From Trichlorobacter lovleyi SZ (GTDB taxonomy: Bacteria; Desulfobacterota; Desulfuromonadia; Geobacterales; Pseudopelobacteraceae), in assembly GCF_000020385.1 (NCBI RefSeq), contig NC_010814.1, positions 1,440,001 to 1,472,000 on the forward strand: 32,000 bases of DNA. The letters run 5' to 3'. The position numbers and the translations under genes are program-made. Shown one piece after another: positions 9,501-25,025 of the stretch. The notes under the pieces were generated by a model. That model searched no databases, had not been told where the DNA came from, and saw only the letters and a list, made by a program, of their open reading frames with translations. Numbering within the stretch: position 1 is the first letter of the stretch; each line of letters opens with the position of its first letter.

Positions 9501-10171
9501 GGCTTATCCATGTACCGGTGGTATGGGATACGCAACCCTTGGTCGGGATAGAATGTTTCGACATTTTTCTGCCAGACATAAGCACCGCCGTATTGCTCCT
9601 TTGTCTGTTCATCAGTACCCTCGTAATATACGATCTCCCCGAGCTTCTTCACACGTGACAATCCAATTACAACGTAGTTCTTGGCATCTTCAGTGCTGAA
9701 AGGATTACTCAGGTTAGCATAGTGAAATACCAAGCTCTTCTCTGGCTCAATCGCAGCAAAGAACTCCTTGGCTAGCTCTAACCGCTTCCAGTTATCTACT
9801 CGCCCGCTAGCTTTCGCTTCGTCGCCATACATCGCTTCGTATGGCCAGACGCAGACTGTAGCCGGCGGAAGATGCCATGAAGTCCTGTTGCCAGAGCGGA
9901 AGAAATCCGGTGGATCGTCGAACGCTGTCAAGGGGTCGGCACCAAACGCATTTATACTGTAAATACATGGGGGCGCGCCATCAATCTTGGAACATGGTTT
10001 ACCGGCAATTTCAACGGATTTTTCCCAGGCAAGGTCGCGAGCTCCCCGGATCTTGTCACCGGGATATGAATGAGGACCGATGCAATATCTATTGCAATCG
10101 GGATTCTGGCAAATATGGCCATTCCATCCATCCATGTGCCACGATAGGCGTGCTGATAAGTGTATTGCCAT
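6527..10171 (-). CDS. 1214-aa multidomain protein: unknown Cys/Trp-rich N-terminal region, RecD/TraA-like SF1 helicase core, C-terminal PD-(D/E)xK-type nuclease-like module
   Basis: A GGAGGGG RBS precedes the ATG. Helicase motifs: Walker A GAAGTGKTT (res 601-609), LLLAPTGKAA, Walker B FVIDEASML, ILVGDPNQLPP, SVHKSQGSEF, FYTGITRAT. The NPYVLIEQYVG segment resembles the RecD2 N-terminal region. The C-terminal SKSEVIIANML...YLPDFTIVW...YWEHLG resembles Vsr/DUF559/DUF2726-type endonuclease folds. Confidence 0.85.
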   Translation of the reverse strand: MAIHLSARLSWHMDGWNGHICQNPDCNRYCIGPHSYPGDKIRGARDLAWEKSVEIAGKPCSKIDGAPPCIYSINAFGADPLTAFDDPPDFFRSGNRTSWHLPPATVCVWPYEAMYGDEAKASGRVDNWKRLELAKEFFAAIEPEKSLVFHYANLSNPFSTEDAKNYVVIGLSRVKKLGEIVYYEGTDEQTKEQYGGAYVWQKNVETFYPDQGLRIPYHRYMDKPEVLEKIVLIPENSRCFKYGSRHVSDDDALSLVERFIEIVTFLRDIGDDSENWSVRLQWLNSLVAELWKSRGLFPGLSRVMDLIGLSSAVTPFRSAVAKGQEKIFHDAVFQWLNAGRDAIPGVSIGSAEITKIRRQWSLRTDDERQILTGLLPRIDLPVDQMERILSEKRIENGLEAGLGDIQANPYVLIEQYVGENPDDSINFSRVDHAVFPSPDLGGEFLFDTDDWRRLRALCVDRLKFETKHTFLTCGQMLQDVNRRLSYLPDWKRVEFTARYLEVDRTNLEFAMVFRREGERDYAYLRGAYEAEREIEDRIRKLAGYSDITFRSPVTERHWKDLLFEAKSPLAEKSRHDYEVAIEAQAAVCAKIFNRPISVVCGAAGTGKTTIIRSIIQAIEKAHGTDATFLLLAPTGKAADRIREKTGKEASTIHSFLARRGWLNPNLTLKHSGGQREDQVTTFVIDEASMLDLELLAAVFRAINWSAVQRIILVGDPNQLPPIGRGKVFADIIEWLRKNHPASIGELTVNLRQMENRLTGKGTGILDLASIYVRNPNRDQKDEEESIRAELMLQRLQDLPPDGTVDKDLRVIYWKGADDLLSKIVNRIVADMEEDSGEKFNPEAAHALWLAATRGKEKNPRPDYHQVISPYRHEDFGTEAINLRIQQEARGVGMRRVGLLAGLTLFDKVIQVRNRGASDAIWAYNHQTRQNERSSVFNGELGFVVPHALDGSKWQVPEKTYYRIKRFQVRFSRKEHLAFAYGKELGYAMEGTKKRYLPDEKPEDNLELAYAISVHKSQGSEFERVYFVLPKQKTALLSPELFYTGITRATRHCTVLIEEDIAPLLKIHRPESSHLVGINCSLFEFTPAPDGFELIRREGFFEEGRIHRTLAEAMVRSKSEVIIANMLFDRDISFLYEKPLYAPDGSFYLPDFTIVWRGEQFYWEHLGLLERDEYKRHWDTKKAWYEKHFPGRLVTTEESGNLSITARNLIETRFS

Positions 10172-10216
10172 TTCCCCTCCAAAATTCCAGAGCTGCGACT
10201 CTTTACGGTACTACTG

Positions 10217-12961
10217 TCAAATCTCAGTATTTCGGTAGACGTCAACCTTTGTCTGTCGACAGCGGCGAAGACTGTGGTCTGCAGCTTCAATCGAGATCCA
10301 GCTTTCAGGCTTATGATATATATCCAAGCCTCGACCAATCTTAACGGTCCATCCGTTGTCAAAGAGGATCTCACGGTCATGAATACTGGAATCTCTTCGC
10401 CAGGTAAGAGTAACCCCCCTGCTACTCAGGTCACGGGATAATGTTTCTAATCTACTGTCAGCATCGTCAGTGTTTTCTCCGGTTTGTTTACCAGAATGAA
10501 GCTCTATCCTGTTTACTCTTCCGAACCGAATGGCCAATGCGCAGAAACGGGAAAAATTATCCACTTGATGCGGAAGTTTAATGTAGGGATCTTCAATTTT
10601 TATGTGTGTAACATCGTCGATATAAGGGCGGAAAATCCTCTCATAAGTGTATCCAGTTGCGTTGTCCAATATTTCGTAATGCTGCTCTTTGAGCATGTTG
10701 GCCAAGAGGTCGGCTGCATTTTCATCTTCAGTGGAGTCACCGGCAGGCGGGGCAATGTGAGGATTCAGAGGTGCAAATACGACTGCTTCAGGACTGGCCG
10801 CAAAATTACGCAGAAGAGCGACCATTCCACTAAGATATGAGGTGACTTGTTCTCGTTGGCCTTCGGCAGCAACTTGCAATGAGGACTCAATTGCTTGTAG
10901 TCGTTGCTGAATGACTCCTTCCGAGGTTTCCCTAATTCGTGGGCCGACTGATTCCGCATTCTTTCTAATTGCTCCAGCAAACTCATGAATTCTCGTTTCA
11001 AGATGGGTCCGCAAGGCGTCAGCAAGCATTTTACGTATTTCAGAGTAGAAACGTGTCACTTCGTCACCCTGCTTAACAGTGGTCCCCTTGCCGAATACAT
11101 CTGAAACCTTGCTGCGGGCACCGTCAAGCCTCTCCTGGACCTCCTCAGTCACAAAGTCGTCAAGTTTTGAGACAATCCCATCTCTTTCCTGTTCTCCGAG
11201 TTTCTGGAATGTCCTGCGAAGACCATCAAACAATGGCGTTTGTGCTGCGGCTAACGCTATCGGCTCCAACCCGGCCAATTTGTGGTCGGCTTCGAGAGAG
11301 TTCAACTCCGACTGCAAAAGAGTAAGCTGTCTGCCAGCCTGGCCCATGTAACTTTCTAAGTGTTCGCGTAATTCATTCAGTACTGCCTCGGCCTTTGGGA
11401 AAACTCGGTCGGCTACTTTTGCCTGTAAATCATATAGAGCACCCCAATAACCACACCGTCGCGTCTTCCAGTGCTTGATGAGATCGGCCTTTTCCAGGTC
11501 GTTAAGGACCTCCTTAGCTTGCATGGAAATAAGATCGAGGTGAAGGGGTAGTGTTTTGAACAAGGCCTCCTGGTCATTTGCCAAGAGGCCAAGGGCTTCC
11601 CCCGAGCGTTCACCAAAAGTATCCAACTTCTGCCTTAATGCCGTCCTGATAGTTTCTATTTCTTCACGGACTCTGGCAGGATCAAATTCTCGTTCAAGAG
11701 TATTCAGACGCTCCCCGAATGCACGACGAAGGCGCTCCAAAGCTATCCCTAACCGATCGTTGAGAACATTCCGTGCCTGTTCAAACCGGTTGCTGGTGGA
11801 AAGAATCCGATACAGTCCATCGCGGACAGCATCTATGCCTCCTTTTTCTACTTCTCCATCATCATGAAATTTGGCAGAAACCAAGTGCACAGGAACATTG
11901 TCGAGTTGCTCAATGAAATAGTATCCCTCTTCGTCGGTAAGCTGATTGGTTTGAAGCAGCTCATCCAACGTGGATTTTGATTCTGACCTAACCCGATTGG
12001 CTTCTCGGCCCTTGAAATCATTGTATGCAGGAGGATCGTCATCGTTTTCCCGTGCGTCACGAACCGCATTTTCATAGGTCTCGTCGCACTTGGTAACAAT
12101 CAATTGAAGATGTTTGATCTGGCGTCGCCTTAACTGACGCAAGATAAATTCTTTATCGCTTTGACTGTACGATGCCCCGCTGACAGTTAAGAAAAGGATT
12201 GCATCAACGTCTTTAACAAGCTCTTCCGTAAGTAAAACCCGGAAGTGTTCAGTGTCATCTAGTCCTGGGGTATCAATCAACTCGATTTGATCACGCAATA
12301 GAGGAATTGGGGCATAGATCGTCAATTTGTTAACGAGATAATGCAACGGCTCCTGGCCGGAGGTGAATTTCTTGATGGCGGCAAGAAAGGCTTTTTTCCC
12401 GTCACGCGTCCCCCAGTCCTCTGCCAGGATTTTGTGTACCTTTCCATCTGGTTGAACCCAGCGTTTAACCAATCCATCGAGATCGATCTGCTCTCGGGGG
12501 ATATCGCGCCCTTCCCTGTCCTTCCTGGGCGGACGTTCGTTAAAATGGATAAAACGGTCATATCTCTTTACTTCAGGATTTTTCGGATCGTCTGCGTGAT
12601 CTTCTTTAAGGCGCTGCCACTCCTCGACACTTACTAATTCAACCTCTGCCCGAGTTTGAGTGTCATAGCGAAAAATTGAAATTGCCGCAGTTTCAGGGTT
12701 TGTGTCCACTCCCGCCAGACGCTCCCCAGCCAACTTGTTAACAAAGGCGGATTTCCCCACCTTAAAACGGCCAACAACGGCCACTCGATACCGTTCTGGA
12801 ATATGCGCCTGTTCCAGTGCCTCGGTCAGAAGCATGACCTGTTCATCAATAAAAGGTCGATACGCCGGAAGTTCCTTATGTAGAGCTTGTTCTAACTGCT
12901 GTCTAAGAAGGATGATCCTGTCGCGTGCTTCGTGCAGTTCGTGAACAAGTAACATACTCAT
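10217..12961 (-). CDS. dynamin-family GTPase fused to a C-terminal MIT_C (MITD1-type PLD-fold) domain
   Basis: GTPase motifs, numbered on the 923-aa track ORF: G1 GRFKVGKS (73-80), G3 DTPG (239-242), G4 TKCD (299-302), followed by a long helical region. The C-terminal IEDPYIKLPHQVDNFSRFC...IHDREILFDNGWTVKIGRGLDIYHKP...RRCRQTKVDVY closely resembles human MITD1 MIT_C as I recall it. The track start (12988) is a TTG. The ATG at 12961 has a GGAGGG RBS 9 nt upstream, so I use it. Confidence 0.85.
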   Translation of the reverse strand: MSMLLVHELHEARDRIILLRQQLEQALHKELPAYRPFIDEQVMLLTEALEQAHIPERYRVAVVGRFKVGKSAFVNKLAGERLAGVDTNPETAAISIFRYDTQTRAEVELVSVEEWQRLKEDHADDPKNPEVKRYDRFIHFNERPPRKDREGRDIPREQIDLDGLVKRWVQPDGKVHKILAEDWGTRDGKKAFLAAIKKFTSGQEPLHYLVNKLTIYAPIPLLRDQIELIDTPGLDDTEHFRVLLTEELVKDVDAILFLTVSGASYSQSDKEFILRQLRRRQIKHLQLIVTKCDETYENAVRDARENDDDPPAYNDFKGREANRVRSESKSTLDELLQTNQLTDEEGYYFIEQLDNVPVHLVSAKFHDDGEVEKGGIDAVRDGLYRILSTSNRFEQARNVLNDRLGIALERLRRAFGERLNTLEREFDPARVREEIETIRTALRQKLDTFGERSGEALGLLANDQEALFKTLPLHLDLISMQAKEVLNDLEKADLIKHWKTRRCGYWGALYDLQAKVADRVFPKAEAVLNELREHLESYMGQAGRQLTLLQSELNSLEADHKLAGLEPIALAAAQTPLFDGLRRTFQKLGEQERDGIVSKLDDFVTEEVQERLDGARSKVSDVFGKGTTVKQGDEVTRFYSEIRKMLADALRTHLETRIHEFAGAIRKNAESVGPRIRETSEGVIQQRLQAIESSLQVAAEGQREQVTSYLSGMVALLRNFAASPEAVVFAPLNPHIAPPAGDSTEDENAADLLANMLKEQHYEILDNATGYTYERIFRPYIDDVTHIKIEDPYIKLPHQVDNFSRFCALAIRFGRVNRIELHSGKQTGENTDDADSRLETLSRDLSSRGVTLTWRRDSSIHDREILFDNGWTVKIGRGLDIYHKPESWISIEAADHSLRRCRQTKVDVYRNTEI

Positions 12962-13039
12962 ATGTGCATTCCCTCCGTAATAATTCAAAATTCAATTGAT
13001 ATTCAAATAGTTGCCTTGCCTTTCATCAACAGCAATATC

Positions 13040-14131
13040 TCACACCAGCCTGCTTGCCTGATACCAGTACCAAAATGCCTCGGGATTGACCGACATGAGT
13101 CGGTTGAGGCGTTCCCATTCACCCTCAATCTTCAACTGTCGCATCTCTTCTGGTGAAGGAATTGCCTTGAAAACCTCCAACGAAGAACCTGCCCCCTCGC
13201 TTCCTATCAATCTGGCCACCAGTGCGGCTTTTGCAGCTGCCAGCTTTGCTGCATCCAGGTTGAAGCGGTGGTTGACGAGATGGGATGTTAGCTTTCGTGT
13301 TCCATCTTCGAGCATGAGCGCATCAGGAGAGTCGCTTACCCCCTTGAGGCGATGCAGGCTGAGTCTCAAGGATGCATCCAGCGTGTCGTGCAGGCTGTCA
13401 GTTGCGGTCATACCGCCACCGCGATATACATTTTCCAGATCAAAAACCTTATGGTAAACCCTTCGGACAGCCGTTAGGTCCTCTGTCAGGTTGAACAACT
13501 CGCCCACATCGAAGAGTTGTTTGACGATCTGCATGGTGTCAGGGGGGCCGCCATTGGCCGGTGCAATGTGCACACCGGTTGTTCTCGGGGCAAATGCCGT
13601 CAGCTTATCCGCCAGCAAGCTTTCCACTGTGGGAACTGTGACCGGGATCTCTCGTCGGATCTCCAGAATATCCGGAGTAATCGGTTTGACTATCACATCA
13701 TGGGGAACATGGGGTTCTTCCACGACATCCAGGAAAACGTAGGGCGCCGGGTTGCCGGCAACAAGGGGGGTGTAGAAGAATTTGAAGTGCCGTCTTTGTG
13801 GCAGGCCACGGGAACCCCGCTCATCTTCCTCATAGCGGGTAAATGGCGGCACCTTCGCCACCTCACCGAGAATCCGGTCCAGTTCTGTTGCCGGAGCTGA
13901 ACAGAGAATGTCAATATCAATGGAAAGTCTGCGGATGACCGGGACATGGAGCAGGAGGCTCGTCCCCCCCTTGAATACGAAATTCAGGTCACTTTCCGCC
14001 AGGTGACCCAGAAGTGCGAAGGCATGGAGAGCTCGTTCAAGCAGGGAAGGATCAACCCCTTTAAGCTCTTTCCTTTTTTTGTCCAACCAGTCGGCCGTAA
14101 AGCAGATTTCAGCGATCATATTGCTGTCCAC
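13040..14131 (-). CDS. abiEii: AbiEii/AbiGii-family nucleotidyltransferase toxin (type IV TA / abortive infection)
   Basis: FVFKGGTSLLLHV...RRLSIDIDILC is the G-S...D-x-D NTase signature typical of DUF1814/AbiEii. It lies directly downstream of an AbiEi-like gene. Confidence 0.8.
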   Translation of the reverse strand: MDSNMIAEICFTADWLDKKRKELKGVDPSLLERALHAFALLGHLAESDLNFVFKGGTSLLLHVPVIRRLSIDIDILCSAPATELDRILGEVAKVPPFTRYEEDERGSRGLPQRRHFKFFYTPLVAGNPAPYVFLDVVEEPHVPHDVIVKPITPDILEIRREIPVTVPTVESLLADKLTAFAPRTTGVHIAPANGGPPDTMQIVKQLFDVGELFNLTEDLTAVRRVYHKVFDLENVYRGGGMTATDSLHDTLDASLRLSLHRLKGVSDSPDALMLEDGTRKLTSHLVNHRFNLDAAKLAAAKAALVARLIGSEGAGSSLEVFKAIPSPEEMRQLKIEGEWERLNRLMSVNPEAFWYWYQASRLV

Positions 14132-14160
14132 TAACTACACATATATTCATAAATGTGGAG

Positions 14161-14880
14161 TTAGTGTATTATCTCCTTGCTATCTATTTTCTTCTTGAGA
14201 TCTTCTGCATAGCCAAATAAAACAGTAAGTTGCAACAATCCTGAGCCAAGGGCAGTGTCAATAATCCGCTGCACTTCGGCAGAATCCATCAATTTAAGTT
14301 TGTTAGCTTCGATGACAAGATCTACCAGTGCCTTTTCAATGGCCGCGATATGCTCCTTGGCGTTCGGCTGATCAGTTTTTGTTGGACGGAGGACGATTGT
14401 CTTCTCGCTGGGCTGGAGTAATTGATCCACAACATTTTTAACAGGATTAGCCCAAGCATTCCAGCCGATCCCGCGTAATGCGTCGGCTACTGAATTTAAG
14501 GTGTCGCTCTCAGCATAGAGGAAAGTCGTAGGTTGGGCTATAAGATGCAGGGCAAAAGGATTGAACTGAACCGTGGACCAGCAGCAGAAATCGAGTAGCG
14601 GGAAAACCTTTTTCACATCACGGATCACGTTTGCTACAGGCTTTGGATCGAGACTGACGGGCCTACTATGGCGGCTGTACCAGCCACGTCCAGCATCAAC
14701 GACAATGCCGGTGGCCATAGCCTCGCTCATGTACTTGCGAAGAGAGTTATCAGCCAATTCGATTCCATCAGCAGTCAAAGTGCGCTTCACAGCATCGATG
14801 GAAAAATACGCGCTCTGCACCTTGAGTACAGGAAGCGTATGGGTAAAGAGATAAGCTTTATGTGTCAAAGGTAATTTCAT
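14161..14880 (-). CDS. abiEi: AbiEi-like antitoxin / wHTH protein paired with AbiEii
   Basis: It sits 29 nt upstream of abiEii. The N-terminal winged-helix-like part ends in GIVVDAGRGWYSR, resembling the R-G-x-Y motif of AbiEi antitoxins. The start was moved to ATG 14880 (MKLPLTHK) to remove the overlap with the upstream gene. Confidence 0.6.
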   Translation of the reverse strand: MKLPLTHKAYLFTHTLPVLKVQSAYFSIDAVKRTLTADGIELADNSLRKYMSEAMATGIVVDAGRGWYSRHSRPVSLDPKPVANVIRDVKKVFPLLDFCCWSTVQFNPFALHLIAQPTTFLYAESDTLNSVADALRGIGWNAWANPVKNVVDQLLQPSEKTIVLRPTKTDQPNAKEHIAAIEKALVDLVIEANKLKLMDSAEVQRIIDTALGSGLLQLTVLFGYAEDLKKKIDSKEIIH

Positions 14881-14894
14881 TGCGGGGAACTCGT

Positions 14895-16115
14895 TTATAA
14901 ATAAAAGACTCCGAAAATAACCACCCCGACAAGGAATGGAGCCCAACTTAAGCATCTAAACAACCGTAACAACCATCGCAATTTATTTTCGTTTTTATCC
15001 AATCCTGTCTTCATTTCAGATATTGCAGACTTTAGTTCATCCGGATAAACTTCCTGTTTCCCTTCAAGTGCGTTAAAGACAATATTCTTTGCATGAATTA
15101 TTCTTTGTAATTGGCGCTGCTGATTGCCTACTGTTCCAGAGAAAATAAGCGTTGCTAAACCAAGGCCAATTACTATCATCAAACTTTCTAAAACTGATGT
15201 AGATTTCATAATTGCAATTGCTGCTGCAAGGGATATAGGGATACCTAACAATTTACCTGTTATGTCGATAATTATCTTGGAAAATTCATCGGCTATCTTT
15301 AACTCAGCTTCCGCTACCTCTCTTTTTGCTTTGTGAAAAGCAAAACCACTCAAATATGTATCAAGATTGTTGTTAAAAATATTGATAAAATCTTCCCATT
15401 CAGAGACAAGAAATGAGAATGTAGGCTGTCCGACAGGGCACTTCTGCAAAAACTCCGCTAAGGACACGCGGAATACTCCTACCTTAGAGCTATAGTGAGG
15501 ATCAGTCTTGGGATTGTCTGCCCGCAGGGATTCTACAAGAGTTAAATCGGGAATGCGACCATCAAGCATATCCACATTGATGGTCGTGTCTATCTCTACA
15601 GTCTTGGAAGCTGGCTGCGTTGAATCTTCAGGTTGGATGAATATTAATCTATAATGTCCTGCAGCTGTCTTTTCATCGTGATAATGAGCTAAATCAGATA
15701 AACCTTTGATCAGCTTGCAGACGACAGATAATTTTTCTAACTTAGGAAATGGCGTATCTGTCCCGTTAAAATAATCCTCTTCAATCAAATAAAATTCAGA
15801 TGGCATTTCGCCGCGAGATATCTTAGGAGCACCAGTTATCAAGCCAGACAAAGAAGGGTAAAATTTACAGTCTGTACCAGTAGGCAACCTGAATATTAAT
15901 TCAACTTGACTACCTTGATCAGGCAACGCCTCAGTAGTCGTTATCTCAGCATCATCAACAAGTATTTCGTCAAACAGGTTCGAATTTAATTCTCTGATAG
16001 ACTTGATCAAACTGATCACATCAGTATCAATGGCTAATAGCGACGAGAACACCCCACCACTTATTGGGGGTCTATTTGCCTTGCGGTACAATTTTACTAT
16101 GGGAGCAAGAGCCAT
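14895..16115 (-). CDS. hypothetical membrane protein (soluble N-terminal ~270 aa, C-terminal TM helices)
   Basis: 406-aa ORF. Hydrophobic segments are LLGIPISLAAAIAIM, LMIVIGLGLATLIFSGTV and the C-terminal WAPFLVGVVIFGVFYL. It starts 3 nt after the stop of the NdpA-like gene. The DNA is A+T-rich. Confidence 0.6.
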   Translation of the reverse strand: MALAPIVKLYRKANRPPISGGVFSSLLAIDTDVISLIKSIRELNSNLFDEILVDDAEITTTEALPDQGSQVELIFRLPTGTDCKFYPSLSGLITGAPKISRGEMPSEFYLIEEDYFNGTDTPFPKLEKLSVVCKLIKGLSDLAHYHDEKTAAGHYRLIFIQPEDSTQPASKTVEIDTTINVDMLDGRIPDLTLVESLRADNPKTDPHYSSKVGVFRVSLAEFLQKCPVGQPTFSFLVSEWEDFINIFNNNLDTYLSGFAFHKAKREVAEAELKIADEFSKIIIDITGKLLGIPISLAAAIAIMKSTSVLESLMIVIGLGLATLIFSGTVGNQQRQLQRIIHAKNIVFNALEGKQEVYPDELKSAISEMKTGLDKNENKLRWLLRLFRCLSWAPFLVGVVIFGVFYL

Positions 16116-16118
16116 GAC

Positions 16119-17234
16119 TTACTCCTCTGGCCTGTTTTCTAGCTCTTCACAGATTTTTTCGATCAAACTATCAGGTAGATCCTTTATCGTAATGCGATTA
16201 TTTTCTCGGTCGTAATATATTTGAGCAGCGTCAGTCACCCCGAGAGCATGACGTTCAAATTTAAGATCCCAATTGTCAGCACTGTAAATAATATGCGTGT
16301 GTTTTTTTAATGCAGCCTTGTTTACGGGAAATTCAACTGGTACAGCATGCTCTTCACTATTCAGATGTGAGATGAGAGCACAAGCCATCTCGTCGACTTG
16401 GCCCGGCTCTCCAGCTGGCATGAACTGACGTGCTATCTCTTCCACCTCGCTGAGTTTAACGGATTCTCCTACCTCCTCTTTTCTCGAAAGGTATGCAAGC
16501 AAGTTGTCTTTAAACCTCTTGCGAAAAGGGTTAAGAGCGTCGTTGTTTCTAAAAAATGCTGTACTTTCTTTAACCAAAGTGTCGGTAGCACGTGCTGATG
16601 CAGCTCCGGGGGCGCAACCAAGTGCAGTTACAAAATAACCAGCCGCCGTCTTTCCAGCATTTGGGCTTACAAAACTCAGATAGCTCAACTCTTGACGGTC
16701 AGCCTCAGGTGCAGCAAGATATGCAGACAACTTCCCGAAATTAACGCGAGCTGCCTGGTAGAGGCGATTCATATCAAGCTCTGTGAGTTCCTCTGGTTCA
16801 AGGCCTTCGCTAAGCCTTATTCCCTCTTTTTGCTTGATCATTGCTATTATGAAAAACCTTGACTGAGCGCTTGAATAATCAGCGAAAAGTATATAGCCCC
16901 CGGATGACGCTTGGCTTGATTCAGCTTTTCTATACAGTTCGTCCATTGCGACTCGCGTTAGTGCCATAAACTGCGCGTCATCCGGGGTCGCAGATTCAGT
17001 ATATGTGCTAAAACTGCCCGGAAAGGCTCCGCTGCCGTCGCCAGTACGGAAGGTTCCATAATGGGCGCTGTTGTTGCGAGTGCCATAAAGCGACGTGATG
17101 CCGTCAACCAACTTTAGCACAATCCCGTTAGTAGGATCTAGAACGGCTGCCCTTAGGTTAGATGGTTGAATTGGTTGGTGCTGTTCTTTAACAAGCTCAT
17201 GAATTACTACCTTGTTAATGATGATATCAGGCAT
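16119..17234 (-). CDS. NdpA/YejK-like nucleoid-associated protein (NA37 family)
   Basis: The N-terminal IINKVVIHELVKE and the central GGYILFADY...RFFIIAMIK match the NA37 pattern as I know it. The ATG at 17234 is preceded by GGGGGA. The track's 12-codon extension would overlap the upstream gene. Confidence 0.65.
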   Translation of the reverse strand: MPDIIINKVVIHELVKEQHQPIQPSNLRAAVLDPTNGIVLKLVDGITSLYGTRNNSAHYGTFRTGDGSGAFPGSFSTYTESATPDDAQFMALTRVAMDELYRKAESSQASSGGYILFADYSSAQSRFFIIAMIKQKEGIRLSEGLEPEELTELDMNRLYQAARVNFGKLSAYLAAPEADRQELSYLSFVSPNAGKTAAGYFVTALGCAPGAASARATDTLVKESTAFFRNNDALNPFRKRFKDNLLAYLSRKEEVGESVKLSEVEEIARQFMPAGEPGQVDEMACALISHLNSEEHAVPVEFPVNKAALKKHTHIIYSADNWDLKFERHALGVTDAAQIYYDRENNRITIKDLPDSLIEKICEELENRPEE

Positions 17235-17242
17235 ACATCCCC

Positions 17243-18184
17243 CTAAGTTCTTTTTCCGATAACAGCACAAATTCGGTAATACAGCTGCTCTTTCAGACTT
17301 TCAGGCGTTTCCCACACAATGTGATTGTACTGTCGTGTGTCGAAATGAATTTTATCGAGCTCGTCTTTTTTCACGCACCAGATCACCGGTCGATTCAAAC
17401 CCATGGCATAGCCGGCCTCAAAATAAACTCCTTGTTTTTGCTGCGTGACGTCAGCAACAACAAATAGCGAATCCTTGATGTCGGAAATGATCTTGGCGTC
17501 GATCCGGTCAATGTGCTCTTCCTTGTCGATCCGGTGAGCCTTGTAACCTGCCTTCTCGATAGCTGACTTTATCCCTTCTTCCCAAATAGCGTCTAATATC
17601 TTGTCGAAAGACATGGCGACAAAGACCTGATCGGTAAAAGTAGGTTTCCAAGCTTCAGAATCGAGATTGTCCCACCCTCGCGGGCTGATTTTCACTTCAC
17701 TACTACCAATTATAGCGCTACGTGTAACCAATCCGCGCTGCTCAAGTGACTCCAATAAGTATTCAAACTCGTCGCAATTTACGGCCCAGGCGATCGGGTA
17801 ATCAGTGTCCGGGTTCAATGTAACTTCTTTGCCGGGGTATACGGTGCGGCGTTCTATAGCCCTAAGCAGAAGCAACTGCTTCTCAAGCACAGAATACTGG
17901 CGAAAATTTTTAATCGTTTCATCTATTGAATTGGTGAGCAACTCAGGCTTTGGGCGTTTGTTTTCCTCTTGATTTCTAATCCATGCCGACAAACGCGGAT
18001 CGGCATCTCCGCTCCGCTGATTTATTTCGGCAGTCCGGGAAATAAAAAAAGGCCCACAAACCGCGCATTCATAGGAAAAGCCATCTCTAGTACGATATTC
18101 ATCATTTTCAATCATTCTGACGTACGAAGTTCGACAAATCGGGCAGGTCAATTCCTCCATAGTAATCTCCATGTCAAACACCAT
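17243..18184 (-). CDS. Zn-ribbon + winged-helix + nucleoside 2-deoxyribosyltransferase-like (TIR/SLOG-type Rossmannoid) domain protein
   Basis: CPIC...CAVC is a four-Cys ribbon (res 14-43). LLLLRAIERR...YLLESLEQRGLVTRS is wHTH-like. The C-terminal VFVAMSFD...FVVADVT...GVYFEAGYAMGLNRPVIW fits the NDT pattern (A-D...E-x-G-x-A) with candidate catalytic Glu256. The start is uncertain (ATG codons 1, 5 and 9); codon 9 at 18160 has a GGAG RBS. Confidence 0.6.
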   Translation of the reverse strand: MVFDMEITMEELTCPICRTSYVRMIENDEYRTRDGFSYECAVCGPFFISRTAEINQRSGDADPRLSAWIRNQEENKRPKPELLTNSIDETIKNFRQYSVLEKQLLLLRAIERRTVYPGKEVTLNPDTDYPIAWAVNCDEFEYLLESLEQRGLVTRSAIIGSSEVKISPRGWDNLDSEAWKPTFTDQVFVAMSFDKILDAIWEEGIKSAIEKAGYKAHRIDKEEHIDRIDAKIISDIKDSLFVVADVTQQKQGVYFEAGYAMGLNRPVIWCVKKDELDKIHFDTRQYNHIVWETPESLKEQLYYRICAVIGKRT

Positions 18185-18210
18185 GCACGATGCTGAACAA
18201 TCATTTTTTT

Positions 18211-18456
18211 CTATTTTTTTGGTTTTTGCGTCAACGCAGAGCCTGCTGCTGTTTTTGCTTTTTTACTAGACTCACTACTATGTAGCGTTTTGGATGCAGC
18301 TGTAGCAGCCACAGGTGATGTAACTTTTTCTGGAGCTTTTCTTTGGGAGAGCGCAGAGCCCGCAGCAGATTTGGCCGTCTTGCTTGAGCTTTCACTTCTG
18401 AGGACTGTGGATGCAGCTGATGCAGCTCGCTTGCTTGTTACCTCGGACTTTTTCAT
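18211..18456 (-). CDS. 81-aa basic Ser/Ala/Lys-rich protein made of two ~40-aa tandem repeats
   Basis: The ATG overlaps the upstream stop (ATGA) and has a GAGGAG RBS. Repeat 1 (...AASAASTVLRSESSSKTAKSAAGSALSQRK) and repeat 2 (...AATAASKTLHSSESSKKAKTAAGSALTQKPKK) are clearly homologous. Confidence 0.5.
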   Translation of the reverse strand: MKKSEVTSKRAASAASTVLRSESSSKTAKSAAGSALSQRKAPEKVTSPVAATAASKTLHSSESSKKAKTAAGSALTQKPKK

Positions 18457-18947
18457 TGTTTTTTCTCCTCAATTGGCGGTTTGATCTTTTTCCCAATTTC
18501 AACAGGTGATGTGTCATTCAAAACTAAAAAAGCCATTACGATTAGAAATGCTGCAAAAAGTAACGCACTGCAGAAGCCACCCGCAAGATTAACACCAAAT
18601 TGCGGCCAAAAACTCCCCAATTTCTTGATTTCGCTTATTACAACGCTTTCTTCTATTTCCTTGCGAATATCTCCATTTGCCACTTCAAGCACTTCAGCAG
18701 AAAAGGTTTGTAAGGCGTTTTCTGCAGTGCCTTTGGCTCTCAGCAATACACTGTCGGGTTGTTGCTCGTACCAACTCTTGATTTCGGTGTCATCGGGCAT
18801 TCTTCCGTTTTGGCTTTCATAATGCTTCATCCACTCAATACGCTGCTCTTCAACAACAGCAAATGCCACTAACCCGTATAACCAGTTTTCTTTGGAATCC
18901 TCAACAAGCTCTCGGTAAACATCGGCAGATCCGGTATACTTAGGCAT
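18453..18947 (-). CDS. hypothetical protein with one C-terminal TM helix (164 aa)
   Basis: A GAGGAG RBS precedes the start, which lies 29 nt after the hsdS stop. GGFCSALLFAAFLIVMAFLVL is a hydrophobic helix. No family was recognised. Confidence 0.55.
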   Translation of the reverse strand: MPKYTGSADVYRELVEDSKENWLYGLVAFAVVEEQRIEWMKHYESQNGRMPDDTEIKSWYEQQPDSVLLRAKGTAENALQTFSAEVLEVANGDIRKEIEESVVISEIKKLGSFWPQFGVNLAGGFCSALLFAAFLIVMAFLVLNDTSPVEIGKKIKPPIEEKKQ

Positions 18948-18976
18948 AGTTGCGCTCCTCAGTTCAGTTGTGACAA

Positions 18977-20359
18977 TTAAGAAATAACAGTTCCCGCTTG
19001 TTGCCCCACATCAAACGCCTCCCGCAGCACCGTCTGCATCAGCAACTGCGCCTGCTCCTTCCGTTCGGCAACCTGCTTTTCCAGTTCATCAATGGTTGCC
19101 ATGAGACTATCCACGCGGGCAACGATGGCTTGTTGTTCGGCGAGAGGGGGAAGAGGGAAAAAATAATCCCTCAGTTTTGTGGCATTAATATTTGATTGAC
19201 CCAATGCATCTGTCTTGTTCGCATCGCACCACTCACGATGAAACTTTGAGTTGAGGACCCCGTTTGAGTAGGTTGCACTGATGCCGCCTAACATCGTTAC
19301 CCGCACCAAATAGCCAGCGAAAATGGCCTCGTACATACCGTCAAAGAGTCCTGTCTTACCAACAAGCTCTCTGCTGTTCGTACGATTGAAAAGAAGGTCG
19401 CCATTTGTAACGCGATATTTCCTAATTTCACCTGTATCGTTAGTGTAGACAAGGTTGCTCCAGTCTATTTTCCCACATTGAATGTTGCCCATGCGAAGAA
19501 CTGGAACTTTCCCTTCCTTGAGAGACTTCACACTCGAACCGTACTGGAAGCCGTCTGCCACTTCTCCCAGCCGGCACCACCCCCAACCCTCCGGTAGGTC
19601 GAACGGTTTATCTTCGTCGGTAATTGGTGGCAAGGGCTTTTCTTTCCGGATTTTACCTTCCTTCACCAGCCGCTCTTTTTCTGCCTTGATCTGTGCCAGC
19701 AACGCTGCCGCGTCATACTGCGGATCGCCCTTTGCCACCGGATGTTGCTTGCGCCATGCCGTTGTCAGTTCCCCTGCGACAGCCTCTTGCAGCAGAGCCT
19801 GGCGGAGTTGTTTGAGCAGCACTCCTTGATGGTTCGTTTCCGTCAGCAATTCCTGATGCTCATCCTCAATCCGGAATATCAGGTCTATCAGACTCTGCTG
19901 TTCATCCAGCGGTGGCACGGGGATCTTAACCGATGCAATCTCTTTCATCGACAGACTGACATTGGCTGCTCCCTTCATCAACGGCACCAGAACGGTATCC
20001 TTGAAATGGGAAAGATACAGATGCAGAAAGCGAGCTGTCAGAACAGACGGGTCTTTGGGAATGACGGCAGCCAGAATGGTGCCGAGAGCAAACTTGCCTG
20101 ACTGATAGTGGACATAATTCAGCGTCTTTTTACCATGACCGGTTGATGACACCAGTGGAATGCAAACCGCATCGGTATCAAACTGCCAGGTGGTGCATGA
20201 TCTGCGATCTGCGCCAGTGGCAACCAGTGGGTATTCCCCTGGAGGAGCGCTTGCCAGGCCGGTTTCCCCTTTGATGATCTCACACAGATCACCTATTCTG
20301 GCTCGTTTCCAGTTAGACACAGGCCAATTCCTTCCGCAACGTCTGCAAAAGGCTATCAC
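18977..20359 (-). CDS. hsdS: type I restriction-modification specificity subunit HsdS
   Basis: Two target-recognition halves are each followed by a conserved helix (VPPLDEQQSLIDLI..., LPPLAEQQAIVARVDSLMATIDELEKQV). The GTG start overlaps the hsdM 3' end by 47 nt. The exact start is uncertain. Confidence 0.85.
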   Translation of the reverse strand: MIAFCRRCGRNWPVSNWKRARIGDLCEIIKGETGLASAPPGEYPLVATGADRRSCTTWQFDTDAVCIPLVSSTGHGKKTLNYVHYQSGKFALGTILAAVIPKDPSVLTARFLHLYLSHFKDTVLVPLMKGAANVSLSMKEIASVKIPVPPLDEQQSLIDLIFRIEDEHQELLTETNHQGVLLKQLRQALLQEAVAGELTTAWRKQHPVAKGDPQYDAAALLAQIKAEKERLVKEGKIRKEKPLPPITDEDKPFDLPEGWGWCRLGEVADGFQYGSSVKSLKEGKVPVLRMGNIQCGKIDWSNLVYTNDTGEIRKYRVTNGDLLFNRTNSRELVGKTGLFDGMYEAIFAGYLVRVTMLGGISATYSNGVLNSKFHREWCDANKTDALGQSNINATKLRDYFFPLPPLAEQQAIVARVDSLMATIDELEKQVAERKEQAQLLMQTVLREAFDVGQQAGTVIS

Positions 20360-21746
20360 TCTTCTGAAACGACTGGTGCAGCAGCTCCAACAGTTCCGCG
20401 CTGGTGTGGGCGTGGCCGGTGTCCTTAATGTGCGGGTTCTTTGTATCCAGGTTATAGCTGTTGGCAGTCAGGGTATCGATAGAAACGCGCCAGGCTTGAT
20501 CGCTCTCCTGCCGGTTGTTCCACCATTCCTTTAGGCGGTTGAACTCAGCGCTCTGGATCGGCTTGGTCTTGGAATAGGACTTGACCCCTTCAGGTAATTG
20601 ATGCTCCCAGTACCAGATTTCCTTGGTCGGCTCCCCCTTGGTAAAAAAGAGCAAGTTGGTGGCAACACTGGCGTAGGGCTGAAAGACCGAGTTGGGCAGC
20701 CGCACAATCGTATGCAGGTTACAGCCTTCCAGCCAGTGCTGGCGGATACGCTGCTTGACGCCGTCGCCGGTCAGAGAGCCGTCCGGAAGGACAATAGCGG
20801 CCCGACCACCATCCTTGAGATAGCGGATCATCAGGAGCAGAAACAGATCGGCGCTTTCAGTGGTGCGGTAGTTCAGGGGGAAATTTGTTTCAACGCCGTC
20901 GGTAACTGATGCTCCGAAAGGTGGATTGGCCAGGATCACATCCACCCGATCCTTGGCGCCGATGCTGGTGTATTCCCGGTTGAGGCTGTCGGTGTAATCC
21001 ACATTCGGCACTTCGATATCATGCAGGATCATATTGGTGACGCTGAGCATGAATGGAAGCGGCTTAAACTCCATACCGTGGATAGTTGACTGCAAGGTTT
21101 GCAGATCTTCTACGTTCTTAACATCCTGGCGACGGATGTTTTCAATTGCGCAGGTGAGGAAGCCGCCGGTGCCGCAGGCTGGGTCGAGCACCTTTTCGCC
21201 CAGGCGTGGGTTGATGATGGCGGTCATGAACTCGGTCAGGGCACGGGGGGTGTAGAACTCGCCATAGTTGCCGGCGCTTTGCAGGTCACGCAGGATTGTT
21301 TCGTAAATGTCGCCGAAAATATGGCGGTCATCGGAGGAGTTGAAATCGATCTGGTTCAGCTCATTCAGCACCTGGCGGATGACGGTGCCGTTCTTCATGT
21401 AGTTGTTGGTGCCTTCGAATATCTCGCGGATGATCAGGGCGCGTTTGTTGCCAGTGGAGATGTCCAGGTTTTTCAGTGCGGGAAACAGCTTCAGGTCGAT
21501 GAACTCTTTAAGCTCGTCACCAGTCATCCCCTCGGCATCGGCAGCCCAGGCCCGCCACTGCACCGCCGAAGGGATGGGTGAGGCGTAGGCCTCTTGAAGT
21601 ATCTCCAGCTCCTTGTCCTTGTCGTCCAGTATCTTCAGGGTAATCATCCAGCCAAGCTGTTCGATGCGTTGGGCATCACCGGAGACGCCTTGATCCTTGC
21701 GCATGGTGTTCTGCAGCCGTTTGATGATGGTGCCGATATTTTTCAT
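20313..21746 (-). CDS. hsdM: type I R-M N6-adenine DNA methyltransferase HsdM
   Basis: The AdoMet motif is VLDPACGTGGFL and the catalytic motif is ILANPPFG. There is also an HsdM N-terminal-like region. Confidence 0.9.
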   Translation of the reverse strand: MKNIGTIIKRLQNTMRKDQGVSGDAQRIEQLGWMITLKILDDKDKELEILQEAYASPIPSAVQWRAWAADAEGMTGDELKEFIDLKLFPALKNLDISTGNKRALIIREIFEGTNNYMKNGTVIRQVLNELNQIDFNSSDDRHIFGDIYETILRDLQSAGNYGEFYTPRALTEFMTAIINPRLGEKVLDPACGTGGFLTCAIENIRRQDVKNVEDLQTLQSTIHGMEFKPLPFMLSVTNMILHDIEVPNVDYTDSLNREYTSIGAKDRVDVILANPPFGASVTDGVETNFPLNYRTTESADLFLLLMIRYLKDGGRAAIVLPDGSLTGDGVKQRIRQHWLEGCNLHTIVRLPNSVFQPYASVATNLLFFTKGEPTKEIWYWEHQLPEGVKSYSKTKPIQSAEFNRLKEWWNNRQESDQAWRVSIDTLTANSYNLDTKNPHIKDTGHAHTSAELLELLHQSFQKSDSLLQTLRKELACV

Positions 21747-21749
21747 GAA

Positions 21750-24158
21750 TTACGCCATCCTGTAAATTTCAGTTTCCAGCTCTCTCACTGCCGCCTGATA
21801 GGCTTCCTTGCCGCCGAAGAGATGGACGATCTCAGCCGGGGTGCCGATTGCCTTGAACGGGTCAATGGTCAGCACCTTCATCTCTTCGATGTTCTCGATA
21901 CCGTCTTTGGCGTATTTTTCCAGTAGCGCCTGCAAGACTTGACGGGCATTGTCACCATACCGCGTGAAGTAATCACGTTTTGTTACCTGCTCGGCTCTTT
22001 CTCTTCTGGTAAGTGCTGGCCGATCCCAGGCGATGTGGCAGATCAGGTCGAACAGGTCCAGCTCCTTCTTTGTCTCATCCAGCAGATTTTCCAGAATAAT
22101 GTCATGCTCAGCCAGCTGGTCGATCACCGCTTTCTTCTTTTCGGCACTGTTCCAGCGGGACAGGAAGTCATCGAGCGTGCGGAACTCATTCAGTAGGCCG
22201 GTGCGGGTGAACTCCTTCAGGCTGCCGGTGGTGAGCTTGCCGTTGGCCCCCAGATACTGCACCCGCTCATTGAGGATCGAGACATCGACACCAGCCACAT
22301 AGATCTTTGGTAGGGGCTCGGCCACAATGCCGCCGCCATCGATGATCTCCGGGCGGTCATAGGTCACTTCCGGTTTGTCATCACCAAAGGGGATTTCGTC
22401 CCCGGTTTCTTCATCCACGACCGGCTCGTCTTCGGGATGGATATCGGCTTCGGTCAGTTCATCATCTGCCAGCAGTTGCTTCACCATGACCGGGTCGCCG
22501 TCAAAATCCGGATCGGCAAACAGGTCGGTCACGTTGCGGAAATCCATGATGGTGAAGTAGCGCTTGCCGAACTCCTCGTTGATGCGCGTACCACGTCCAA
22601 TGATCTGCTTGAACTCAGTCGGGGAATTGATATTGGAATCAAGCACAATCAATTTGCAGGTCTGGGCATCGACGCCGGTGGTCATCAGTTTGGAGGTCAC
22701 AGCAATGACCGGGTAGCGCTCTTCGGGGTTGATGAAATTATCCAGCTCCCGCTTGCCGTCATCGTCATCGCCGGTGATCTTCATGACATACTTATGATTC
22801 TTCAGTACCTCTTCAGGATTGGCGTTGGCCAGAGCTTGGCGCATACGAGTGGCGTGTTCGATATCGACACAGAAAACAATGGTTTTGTCGAAGGGGTCGG
22901 TCTTTTTGAGAAACTCCGTCACCTTGCGGGCAATAGTCCTGGTACGTTCATCAATGACTAGGTTACGGTCGAAATCCTTGGTGTTGTAGAGCCGGTCGTC
23001 CACCGGATTGCCGTCGGCATCCAGTTGACCTTCTTCCGGCCGCCACCCTTCCAGGTCGATGTTAAGGCCGACACGGAGCACTTTGTAAGGAGCGAGAAAA
23101 CCATCGGCAATCCCTTGCCGGAGGGAGTAGGTGTAGAGCGGTTCGCCGAAGTATTCAATATTGGAGACGGTCTTGGTTTCCTTCGGTGTGGCGGTGAGAC
23201 CGATATGAGTGGCGCTTTTGAAGTAGTCCAGAATCTCCCGCCAGGCGCTGTCAGCGGATGCGCTGCCACGGTGGCATTCATCCACCACGATCAGGTCAAA
23301 GAAATCCGGGCTGAACTCCCGGTAGGCGTCTGAATCCTCGTCGTAATTGGTCAACCCCTGATAAAGGGCAAGATAAATCTCAAAGGCCTTGTCGATCTTC
23401 TTCTTGCGGATGACCGTCATTCGGTCCTTGAAATGCTTGAAGTCGCCCCGTTTGGTCTGGTCGATCAAGGCATTACGGTCGGCCAGGAACAGGATGCGTT
23501 TCTTGGTGCCACTCTTCCAGAGACGGTGGATGATCTGAAAGGCGGTGTAGGTCTTGCCGGTGCCGGTGGCCATGACCAGTAGAATCCGGTCTTGCCCTTT
23601 AGCAATTGCTTCGACGGAGCGGTTAATGGCTATCTGCTGGTAGTAGCGGGGCGCCCGGCCGGAACCATCATAGAAGTAGTCAAAAGAGGCAATCTGTTCC
23701 TGATGCGGGGTATCAATCCCTTTGTATGTTTTGTAGCGTTGCCAGAGTTCTTCAGGAGAGGGGAAATCATCAAGGTGGAGCGTGCGCTCTACACTGCCGG
23801 ATGAACCAGTGCGGTCATGTTCCACGAACCCGTCACCGTTGGAACTGAATGCTACCGGGATATCAAGGGTTGCAGCATAGCCAAGAGCCTGCTGCATGCC
23901 GTCGCCCACGTTATGGCTGTTGTCCTTGGCCTCTATGACGGCAATGGGGATATTCGGCTTGTAGTAGAGGATAAAGTCAGCCCGCTTGCGGCTACCACGA
24001 GCAGAGCTAGTGCCGCGCACGTAGATGCGACCATCGGTGAAAGAAACCTCCTCTCGTACCTGACGCTCGATATCCCACCCGGCCTTTTTCAGGGCAGGCA
24101 CAATGTACTGGGTGCAGATATCGCGTTCTGAAAGATTTTTCTTAGAGGTCATGATCAC
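21750..24158 (-). CDS. hsdR: type I restriction endonuclease R subunit HsdR
   Basis: The N-terminal nuclease-like region contains ADFILY...IAVIEAKD. The SF2 motor has MATGTGKT and VVDECHRGS. The C-terminal region is EcoEI_R_C-like. The gene ends 3 nt before the hsdM start. Confidence 0.9.
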   Translation of the reverse strand: MIMTSKKNLSERDICTQYIVPALKKAGWDIERQVREEVSFTDGRIYVRGTSSARGSRKRADFILYYKPNIPIAVIEAKDNSHNVGDGMQQALGYAATLDIPVAFSSNGDGFVEHDRTGSSGSVERTLHLDDFPSPEELWQRYKTYKGIDTPHQEQIASFDYFYDGSGRAPRYYQQIAINRSVEAIAKGQDRILLVMATGTGKTYTAFQIIHRLWKSGTKKRILFLADRNALIDQTKRGDFKHFKDRMTVIRKKKIDKAFEIYLALYQGLTNYDEDSDAYREFSPDFFDLIVVDECHRGSASADSAWREILDYFKSATHIGLTATPKETKTVSNIEYFGEPLYTYSLRQGIADGFLAPYKVLRVGLNIDLEGWRPEEGQLDADGNPVDDRLYNTKDFDRNLVIDERTRTIARKVTEFLKKTDPFDKTIVFCVDIEHATRMRQALANANPEEVLKNHKYVMKITGDDDDGKRELDNFINPEERYPVIAVTSKLMTTGVDAQTCKLIVLDSNINSPTEFKQIIGRGTRINEEFGKRYFTIMDFRNVTDLFADPDFDGDPVMVKQLLADDELTEADIHPEDEPVVDEETGDEIPFGDDKPEVTYDRPEIIDGGGIVAEPLPKIYVAGVDVSILNERVQYLGANGKLTTGSLKEFTRTGLLNEFRTLDDFLSRWNSAEKKKAVIDQLAEHDIILENLLDETKKELDLFDLICHIAWDRPALTRRERAEQVTKRDYFTRYGDNARQVLQALLEKYAKDGIENIEEMKVLTIDPFKAIGTPAEIVHLFGGKEAYQAAVRELETEIYRMA

Positions 24159-24245: not shown

Positions 24246-25025
24246 TCAAATATCCGGATCAATCGTAGCATTCACATATACCTGCCACCGGCGATCCTTC
24301 TTGGCTCCCTTAGTACTTATCCTTGGTGTTAAAGCTGTCGGGATTGGCCGTTTCGAACGGACATAGTCGGCAAGAGGTGCTGCCAACTCTTTTTTACCAA
24401 CCAATTCCAGTAAATAGCCAAGCCTCTGTGCATACGACACCGGAGAAAGCTCGGCTACTTCGGCAAGGCGCTGAGGATTCACACTTTCAGCCAACTCGCT
24501 CAAGATGGTCACAACATTATCCAGGCCGGCGCAGTGGCTGACGTAGCCGACCACATCAAGGGCAGTTGCCTCGGGTGTTGATACTTTTATGGTGCCGGCA
24601 GTGGTGTTCCGTAATTCTGTGGGGATTGCTGCTGCGTTCTTCCGATAAATAAACTGAACCCTGATATTGCCACAAGTTATCGGCCTGCGGACCTTTGCCA
24701 CCATAACTTGAAAGACCTGCGGTCGCTGATGTGCAGCCCCATGATACTCCGCAGCACTTAGGAGCCCGGCATAATATACCTCTCCCAAATGCGCCATGAG
24801 GTGCGGGATGAACTGGGCTGCTGGCACGCACCCCATGATTCGGTGCATCGGGAGAAGAATGACGTAGAAGCCGCGGTACGGCATTGCGATCTCGCCTTTT
24901 TTCTGCAAGCGATGCAACGCCGATTTGACCGCAATCTCTGATGACCCCGCCAGTTGAAAAAACTCCTGGTAGGTGAAACATGAACGGCCTTGCGCGGCTA
25001 AACTGTCGACCAGATCAAGGTACAT
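24246..25025 (-). CDS. AbiEi-family antitoxin-like transcriptional regulator (orphan, no adjacent AbiEii)
   Basis: GEIAMPYRGFYVILLP and YYAGLLSAAEYHGAAHQRPQVFQVM match the AbiEi N- and C-domain patterns. The start was set to ATG 25025 (MYLDLVDSL). Confidence 0.65.
   Translation of the reverse strand: MYLDLVDSLAAQGRSCFTYQEFFQLAGSSEIAVKSALHRLQKKGEIAMPYRGFYVILLPMHRIMGCVPAAQFIPHLMAHLGEVYYAGLLSAAEYHGAAHQRPQVFQVMVAKVRRPITCGNIRVQFIYRKNAAAIPTELRNTTAGTIKVSTPEATALDVVGYVSHCAGLDNVVTILSELAESVNPQRLAEVAELSPVSYAQRLGYLLELVGKKELAAPLADYVRSKRPIPTALTPRISTKGAKKDRRWQVYVNATIDPDI

Follow-up and report, generated by a model that had tools for sequence, protein, structure and literature searches.

Three closely packed genes in Trichlorobacter lovleyi SZ raise the question of whether neighbours that look like one operon also act as one defence system. 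The genes, here called g1, g2 and g3, lie in a 32,000-nucleotide stretch of contig NC_010814.1 (positions 1,440,001 to 1,472,000; hereafter the window, to whose own numbering all coordinates refer) and encode a protein with a C-terminal nucleoside 2-deoxyribosyltransferase (NDT)-like domain, a nucleoid-associated protein (NAP) and a predicted transmembrane (TM) protein, respectively. An initial annotation, made from the sequence alone, had proposed a single three-component system, in which the NAP and/or the winged helix-turn-helix (wHTH) region of g1 senses DNA and licenses a nucleotide-depleting g1 and a membrane-disrupting g3. Our comparative analysis points to a different answer. Most probably, the interval contains two defence modules that work independently and adjoin each other in a hotspot of a tRNA-flanked, serine-recombinase island: module A (g2 and g3, 14895-17234), of the DS-1/PANGU type II class, and module B (g1, 17243-18184), a stand-alone candidate effector. 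Chance and hotspot dynamics brought the two together.

Layout and genomic contexts of the three genes

All three open reading frames (ORFs) are co-directional, on the minus strand. From its first ATG, g1 (17243-18184) encodes 313 amino acids (aa), with M9 (18160) as the likelier start given a 95%-identical homolog, P0001, of 305 aa. The g2 gene (16119-17234) encodes 371 aa from an ATG (MPDIII), a TTG at 17270 being an unlikely alternative start, and g3 (14895-16115) encodes 406 aa. Read directly at the junctions, the spacers are as initially annotated: g1 and g2 are separated by 8 nucleotides (nt; TAG-ggggatgt-ATG), with a GGGGGA Shine-Dalgarno sequence for g2, and g2 and g3 by 3 nt (TAA-gtc-ATG), with a GAGGAG Shine-Dalgarno sequence within the 3' end of g2. 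The cassette is also more A+T-rich than its surroundings, again as described, with a G+C content of 0.39-0.46 over 14.5-19 kb vs 0.50-0.55 in the flanks.

The small gaps speak for one three-component system, as do Shine-Dalgarno sequences that overlap the end of the gene before. Other spacers in the island are short too: 29 nt separate hsdS from a gene for a 164-aa protein, that gene overlaps the next one, for an 81-aa protein, by 4 nt, and at most 14 nt lie between g3 and AbiEi. Because short spacers are general across the co-directional island, the tight gaps do not single out the trio. A promoter and terminator scan of 13900-19200 found no excess over shuffled sequence and left the operon structure unsettled.

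The proposal of a single system failed a synteny check in both directions. We gathered 80 species-level g1 loci with 7-kb flanks, and tblastn detected an NA37 (the family of g2) or g3 homolog within 7 kb of g1 in none of them, nor was NA37 present in 16 additional viral g1 loci. An NA37 hidden Markov model (HMM) built from 38 sequences and run over 2,474 ORFs, viral loci included, had a sole match in locus L004, a 95%-identical copy of the window locus that retains g1-g2-g3. Conversely, g1 was found in 0 of 41 loci of the g3 family (33 from metagenomes and 8 prophage or viral), and the 164-aa and 81-aa genes were likewise absent from all 41. No neighbour of g1 is universal, the most common one being found in at most 7 of 88 loci.

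The module boundaries are visible among close relatives. Downstream of g1 lies the NA37-TM pair in the window and in L004, the 164-81 gene pair in L005-L007 (g1 84% identical), MqsR/MqsA in L153 (81%) and a pair encoding a 397-aa protein and a DUF5131 protein in L154 (82%), so that at 81-84% identity g1 adjoins three other, unrelated modules. DNA homology blocks end exactly at the module borders, at 18206-18947 for the 164-81 pair, 17249-18172 for g1 (the homology common to the window and L005, L153 and L154) and 14921-17287 for g2-g3. In L090, whose NA37 is 91% identical, a decayed remnant of about 40 nt of the g1 3' end (L090 4829-4882, corresponding to window 17243-17287) lies directly upstream of NA37, with unrelated DNA beyond it. 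This remnant indicates that g1 was present ancestrally in the L090 lineage and was deleted while the pair stayed intact; the former point, like the retention of the trio in L004, is in keeping with a three-component system, and the latter argues against one. Judged by synteny, the trio is not a conserved unit.

The g2 and g3 pair

The g2 protein belongs to the NA37 family, as initially recognized, with a Pfam NA37 match at E = 1.6e-65 over model positions 1-324 of 325. The NA37 gene lies immediately upstream of the g3 homolog in 40/40 of the g3-family loci that extend far enough, at gaps of -8 to 45 nt (36 loci), and the sequence identities of g2 and g3 co-vary across 36 loci (Pearson 0.96, Spearman 0.79). 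Judging from these comparisons, g2 and g3 form an obligate pair. The NA37-TM pair is also carried by Klebsiella phage P7641 and by Pseudomonas and Xanthomonas plasmids.

These observations bear on one alternative for the locus, in which g2 is an ordinary YejK-type nucleoid protein next to a g1 with a role in housekeeping or salvage. Matches of g2 to the NCBIfam YejK model (3.8e-39) and to YejK in the PDB (9be2, 8.4e-17) suit that alternative, but the NCBIfam score lies far below the equivalog cut-off (135 vs 341 bits), and g2 is tied to g3 in 40 of 40 loci and is encoded in a low-G+C part of the island; phages and plasmids also carry homologs of it.

The AlphaFold2 (AF2) model of g3 (pLDDT 86.4) consists of an alpha/beta N-terminal domain followed by long helices. 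The soluble, acidic N-domain (aa 1-235, 15411-16115, minus strand) has a net charge of -10, close to the family median of -12 (range -20 to -7). It is followed by a hydrophobic helical hairpin (aa 281-331, 15123-15275, minus strand; Kyte-Doolittle windows 1.7-2.15), which falls within the long helices and is predicted to be membrane-embedded, and by a C-terminal hydrophobic helix (aa 385-406, 14898-14963, minus strand; Kyte-Doolittle 2.11; AF2 helix 392-405). The TM assignment comes from hydropathy and the AF2 model only, and agrees with the soluble N-terminal part and C-terminal TM helices first described for g3. The protein matches phrog_5023 (1e-54); it has no PADLOC match and no Pfam match at E <= 0.1, SLATT included, and on this ground a SLATT identity was rejected. 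Its profile matches no PDB sequence, and a fold search of the PDB returned nothing significant (best E ~1), with a weak, non-significant resemblance to alpha-pore-forming toxins.

We also observed that g3 changes at a clearly higher rate than g2, its NAP partner. Between the window and its closest relatives, L004 and L089, g3 is 83% identical, compared with 97-98% for g2 and 94-95% for g1. In g3 the differences occur along the entire length, and region-wise identity shows no single hypervariable domain.

The initial annotation knew of no defence system with an NdpA-like partner. Such systems exist. DS-1, a two-gene Escherichia coli system from DefensePredictor that was shown experimentally to defend against phage, consists of a 391-aa NAP and, after a 2-nt gap, a 404-aa protein (WP_000355468.1 and WP_000150292.1; PMC13092281), and NCBIfam holds models for both proteins: NF053868, DS1_1 ("nucleoid-associated anti-phage protein"), and NF053869, DS1_2 ("anti-phage protein"). 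The pair studied here shares with DS-1 the gene order (NAP, then a protein of about 400 aa), similar protein sizes, a spacing of 2-3 nt and C-terminal hydrophobic helices in the second protein, and both proteins are homologous over nearly their full length. By BLASTP, g2 matches DS-1A at E = 9e-13 (24% identity) and g3 matches DS-1B at E = 8e-7 (22% identity), in each case near full length, and hhalign of the g3-family profile against DS-1B gives a probability of 95.8%. The DS1_1 model matches g2 at 4.2e-29 (101.7 bits vs an equivalog cut-off of 330), and DS1_2 matches g3 at 2.6e-25 over 304 of 337 profile positions (89.3 bits vs a cut-off of 315) as well as 37 of 37 g3 relatives. We therefore place g2 and g3, on sequence homology, in a distant subfamily of the DS-1 class rather than among its equivalogs. 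The hosts differ too, DS-1 coming from E. coli and the present pair from a deltaproteobacterial-type anaerobe; a megablast search with the three-gene cassette had no match in 5,426 complete E. coli genomes. Another difference is that DS-1A has an N-terminal CxxC..CxxC zinc (Zn) ribbon, which g2 lacks. The ribbon opens DS-1A (MDITCLECG...CDKCG), and in the window it is the gene upstream of g2, namely g1, that starts with a zinc ribbon; this is probably a coincidence.

The second described relative is PANGU. In the PANGU model, a YejK-like NAP resident on the nucleoid is freed once the host genome is degraded by a phage, and then binds and activates an effector; in type II the NAP is Pag2A and the effector is Pag2B, a TM protein with an acidic "DNA-mimic" N-domain that Pag2A binds at 19 nM (10.64898/2026.04.06.716658). 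An anti-phage phenotype has been published for PANGU-Ecu (10.64898/2026.04.06.716658), as it has for DS-1 (PMC13092281). Like PANGU type II, the present pair is bicistronic, joins a YejK-like NAP to an effector with an acidic N-domain and a C-terminal TM region, is linked to restriction-modification (R-M) and other defence genes, and has spread horizontally, phages and plasmids included. Homology to the DS-1 proteins, obligate pairing, co-divergence, architecture and context thus all point to g2 and g3 as a divergent member of the DS-1/PANGU type II class, with g2 as the predicted sensor (DS-1A/Pag2A-like) and g3 as the candidate membrane effector (DS-1B/Pag2B-like). The N-domain of g3 is a candidate NAP-binding "DNA-mimic" domain by comparison with the DMK domain of Pag2B in the PANGU preprint.

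By analogy with PANGU, g2 would coat the chromosome and be released when a phage degrades the host DNA; free g2 would then bind the acidic N-domain of g3, and g3, so activated, would damage the membrane or arrest growth (abortive infection). The initial idea of an NdpA/YejK-like DNA-binding sensor for a membrane effector is the same as this published type II model (10.64898/2026.04.06.716658).

The published systems also bear on whether g1 belongs with the pair. Three-gene NAP operons do exist, since some PANGU type I operons hold an extra SLATT gene (10.64898/2026.04.06.716658), and the acidic N-terminal half of g1 resembles the NAP-binding domains of PANGU effectors. Against this, DS-1 and PANGU type II, both validated, are two-gene systems, and the PANGU preprint names neither TIR nor NDT partners (10.64898/2026.04.06.716658). 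With these points and the synteny considered, a single system formed by g1, g2 and g3 appears distinctly unlikely.

The g1 family and the case for two modules

The AF2 model of g1 (pLDDT 87.3) has three parts, in line with the CxxC ribbon, winged helix and NDT-like domain of the initial annotation. The first is a zinc ribbon (aa 14-46, 18047-18145, minus strand) with C14 and C17, each at least 90% conserved among 30 g1 homologs, and C40 and C43, which do not vary among them; AF2 places beta-strands at 22-49. The second is a helical and winged-helix region (aa ~63-178, 17651-17998, minus strand), delimited with AF2 and Foldseek, which matches MarR, TubR and TrmBL2-type wHTH proteins in Foldseek. 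The third is a Rossmannoid domain of the NDT/DNPH1/TIR superfamily (aa 186-308, 17261-17629, minus strand). Its best Foldseek matches are to DNPH1/Rcl (target-normalised TM 0.74-0.77), with further matches to NDT, the CMP N-glycosidase BcmB, the SPARTA TIR and the SARM1 TIR. The segment GVYFEAGYA of g1 aligns with GVGYELGRA of DNPH1/Rcl, which puts E256 (codon 17417-17419, minus strand) on the DNPH1 glutamate of the G-x-x-x-E-x-G motif. The aligned glutamate is catalytic in DNPH1 and NDT, and E256, the predicted catalytic residue of g1, is invariant among the 30 homologs.

The PADLOC "TIR effector" model PDLC00733 matches g1 at 3.8e-11 and all 30 relatives (best 1e-14). The Pfam models TIR, TIR_2, ThsB_TIR and DUF4062, with PF13676, PF01582 and PF08937 for the TIR domain, match neither g1 (E <= 0.1) nor the 30 relatives (E <= 0.01). 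The family is large and for the most part monocistronic; it comprises at least 2,685 clusters (90% identity) and has at least 557 matches among GTDB species genomes. Searching 1.84 billion representative proteins with the N-terminal 180 aa of g1 gave 580 matches, mostly of g1 architecture. Among ten longer variants of the N-module that we scanned, six carry TIR_2 (one of them also HEAT repeats), one carries PNP_UDP_1 together with the bacterial Death-like domain bDLD3, two carry an NDT-like domain in a longer protein and one has no Pfam match. A constant N-module joined to interchangeable NAD+- or nucleotide-cleaving domains is typical of immune effectors in conflict systems. Sixteen distant relatives of g1 lie on prophage or viral contigs in IMG/VR, and a set of 50,697 phage records, searched by tblastn with g1, gave no match.

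Effector swapping on the N-module, the invariant glutamate, the occurrence in prophages and the position in a hotspot all suggest that g1 is an immune effector, and we regard it as a probable stand-alone, single-protein candidate, a trigger-activated N-glycosidase. The assignment to the TIR/NDT class made initially thus looks right. The Zn-ribbon/wHTH N-module probably senses a trigger or oligomerises, and g1, once activated, would most likely hydrolyse NAD+ or a (deoxy)nucleotide and so arrest the infected cell; substrate, trigger and phenotype are here extrapolated from fold and context.

With TIR, PNP and NDT effectors such as SPARTA TIR-APAZ, ThsB-type proteins and CBASS TIRs, g1 shares the Rossmannoid fold and conserved acidic residue, the match to the PADLOC TIR-effector model and an N-module on which TIR_2 or PNP can take the place of the NDT-like domain; it differs in having no partner Argonaute, ThsA or CD-NTase and no Pfam TIR match. 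The closest described combination is in type II retrons (Retron-Eco1/Ec86, Sen2), whose effectors unite an NDT-like N-glycosidase and a winged helix in one polypeptide (PMC7736814). There the NDT domain is N-terminal and the wHTH C-terminal; g1 has the reverse order, with an added Zn-ribbon. No reverse transcriptase occurs among the neighbours of g1 in the window, an Rfam scan of the window found only a tRNA, and the families most often found beside g1 homologs do not include RVT. With no reverse transcriptase or non-coding RNA nearby and the domain order reversed, a retron association was rejected. PADLOC 2023 does not list the Zn-ribbon, wHTH and NDT-like architecture as a system of its own.

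The wHTH region, together with the Zn-ribbon, would also suit a transcriptional regulator in the manner of BrxR or CapW; g1 would then sense a ligand through its NDT/SLOG-like domain and control the downstream defence operon, whatever its identity. The variety of defence and toxin-antitoxin modules directly downstream of g1 in close relatives (NA37-TM, 164-81, MqsRA and 397-aa/DUF5131) fits such a role. The genomic arrangement across the family does not, since g1 homologs face a convergent gene in 29 of 80 loci and are followed at 60 nt or less by a co-directional ORF in only 16 of 80. The catalytic-type glutamate and NDT motif are moreover invariant across phyla, the same N-module is fused to the enzymatic effector domains TIR_2 and PNP, and the wHTH region is acidic (isoelectric point, pI, 5.1). 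We consider a regulatory role for g1 very unlikely.

The housekeeping alternative introduced with g2 would make g1 a salvage NDT or a DNPH1-like deoxynucleoside monophosphate N-glycosidase without a conflict role. DNPH1/Rcl and NDT are indeed the best folds for its C-terminal domain, JGI annotates g1 homologs as nucleoside 2-deoxyribosyltransferase, and some g1 neighbours are metabolic genes. This sits poorly with the place of g1 between R-M and AbiE genes in a hotspot of cargo exchange, in the slot that holds a CBASS in a sister island (L134, see below), with the family's presence in prophages, and with a sensor-like N-module common to TIR, PNP and Death-like fusions. Of the explanations considered for the locus, we find this the hardest to credit.

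Several observations nevertheless weigh against two independent modules of the kinds proposed. The 8 nt from the g1 stop to the g2 start contain no recognisable promoter or terminator, which makes it probable that g1, g2 and g3 are co-transcribed in T. lovleyi SZ. The g1 remnant in L090 implies that the g1-g2 adjacency predates the split between the window and L090 lineages, and so has persisted. For module A, the identity of g2 and g3 to DS-1 is only 22-24% and their NCBIfam scores reach about one third of the equivalog cut-offs, and equivalence to PANGU type II comes from the published description and from DS-1 homology, not from Pag2A/Pag2B sequences. For module B, the C-terminal domain of g1 matches Pfam PF05014 (Nuc_deoxyrib_tr) at 1.9e-5, its score of 25.2 bits falling short of the gathering cut-off (28.8); the NDT-like assignment holds through the fold and the PADLOC TIR-effector model, and all 30 relatives also match PF05014 weakly (best 9.2e-6). 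The acidity of the wHTH region makes DNA binding by g1 uncertain. Only some of the genes next to g1-family members resemble defence or mobile genes: a Pfam and PADLOC scan of the 138 nearest neighbours, read without a baseline, found some integrases, Schlafen/AlbA_2, LmuB, MADS and type I restriction endonucleases, and also housekeeping genes.

Three of these points, the probable co-transcription, the old adjacency and the acidic N-module, are compatible with a variant in which released g2 also binds the acidic N-terminal half of g1, giving a dual-output PANGU in the T. lovleyi lineage that combines NAD+ or nucleotide depletion with membrane damage. Comparative genomics gives no positive support for it, and we hold this variant to be very doubtful, as we do any functional link of g1 with the pair in this lineage, for which comparative support is equally lacking. 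Stand-alone g1-family proteins might also be triggered in trans by the nucleoid proteins of their hosts. Separately, g1 homologs in Planctomycetota/Sedimentisphaerales have a conserved co-directional ORF of 400-460 aa either 12 nt (L037, L043 and L047) or 54 nt (L034) downstream, which may be a lineage-specific partner of g1.

The surrounding island

Two independent modules side by side are readily accommodated by the surrounding DNA. The initial annotation set the cassette between a type I R-M system and an AbiE pair; the defence-island setting is correct, and between hsdS and g1 two further genes intervene. These, encoding the 164-aa protein (18453-18947, minus strand) and the 81-aa protein (18211-18456, minus strand), form a two-gene module (18211-18947, minus strand) separate from both g1 and g2-g3. 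The 164-aa protein is acidic with one C-terminal TM helix, and the 81-aa protein is very basic (pI 10.7) with two Ser/Ala/Lys-rich repeats (phrog_5079). The module has 417 homolog clusters and, among loci L130-L134, adjoins Thoeris-like TIR genes in Geotalea, a CBASS in L134 and other genes in Vreelandella. The two genes might make up a small system of the defence or toxin-antitoxin kind, or serve as an 'anchor' of the island. Its adjacency to g1 in L005-L007 raised it as the true partner of g1, which was ruled out: each is widespread without the other.

The sister island L134 has the order hsdRMS-164-81-patatin-CD-NTase-397aa-DUF5131-AbiEi. Compared with window 13040-24158, its hsdR, hsdM and hsdS are 87-90% identical, its 164-81 pair 93-94% and its AbiEi 70%, and the slot of g1, g2 and g3 holds a patatin/CD-NTase CBASS and a 397-aa/DUF5131 pair. 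Because L134 shares the frame and carries other cargo in the slot, the stretch downstream of the type I R-M system is, on this comparison, evidently a hotspot of defence-cargo swapping. A 397-aa/DUF5131 pair lies downstream of g1 in L154 as well and may be a further module, as yet uncharacterised.

The frame of the island (window 2588-6414) comprises a tRNA (2588-2659, Rfam), a large serine recombinase (3070-4683) and two ParB/RepB-like genes; the defence genes as a whole are probably carried by a mobile island that has integrated here. Its cargo consists of PDC-S68, a dynamin-like GTPase, AbiEii/AbiEi, the 164-81 module with g1-g3, the type I R-M system and a second AbiEi. At 6527-12988 (minus strand), a helicase of 1,214 aa gives an end-to-end match (1,798 bits) to PDC-S68, a candidate system in PADLOC, and beside it lies a dynamin-like GTPase of 923 aa whose C-terminal domain is MIT_C/PLD-like. 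The GTPase matches LeoBC and a PADLOC model named BrxL, the latter in the model's C-terminal ~170 positions; helicase and GTPase look like another candidate system. The second AbiEi-type antitoxin gene (24246-25088, minus strand) has no recognisable AbiEii beside it and adjoins a divergent 448-aa ORF (25171-26517, plus strand) with no Pfam match.

For the reading of defence islands, the locus illustrates that tight spacing cannot be taken as a sign that genes work as a unit; here, sister islands with swapped cargo resolved the module boundaries cleanly. Of the two modules, the NAP and membrane-effector pair is of a type already described (validated 2025-26), and the g2-g3 pair would bring into this recently recognised NAP-based class (DS-1/PANGU type II) a divergent subfamily from anaerobic bacteria of Desulfuromonadia type and from phages and plasmids. 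The pair alignment, the confident model and the co-divergence signal could guide mapping of the interface between NAP and membrane effector. The g1 family is the uncharacterised part: a well-defined, widespread candidate single-gene immune system, with a constant Zn-ribbon/wHTH module joined to an NDT-like, TIR or PNP domain and with E256 as the target for a catalytic mutant.

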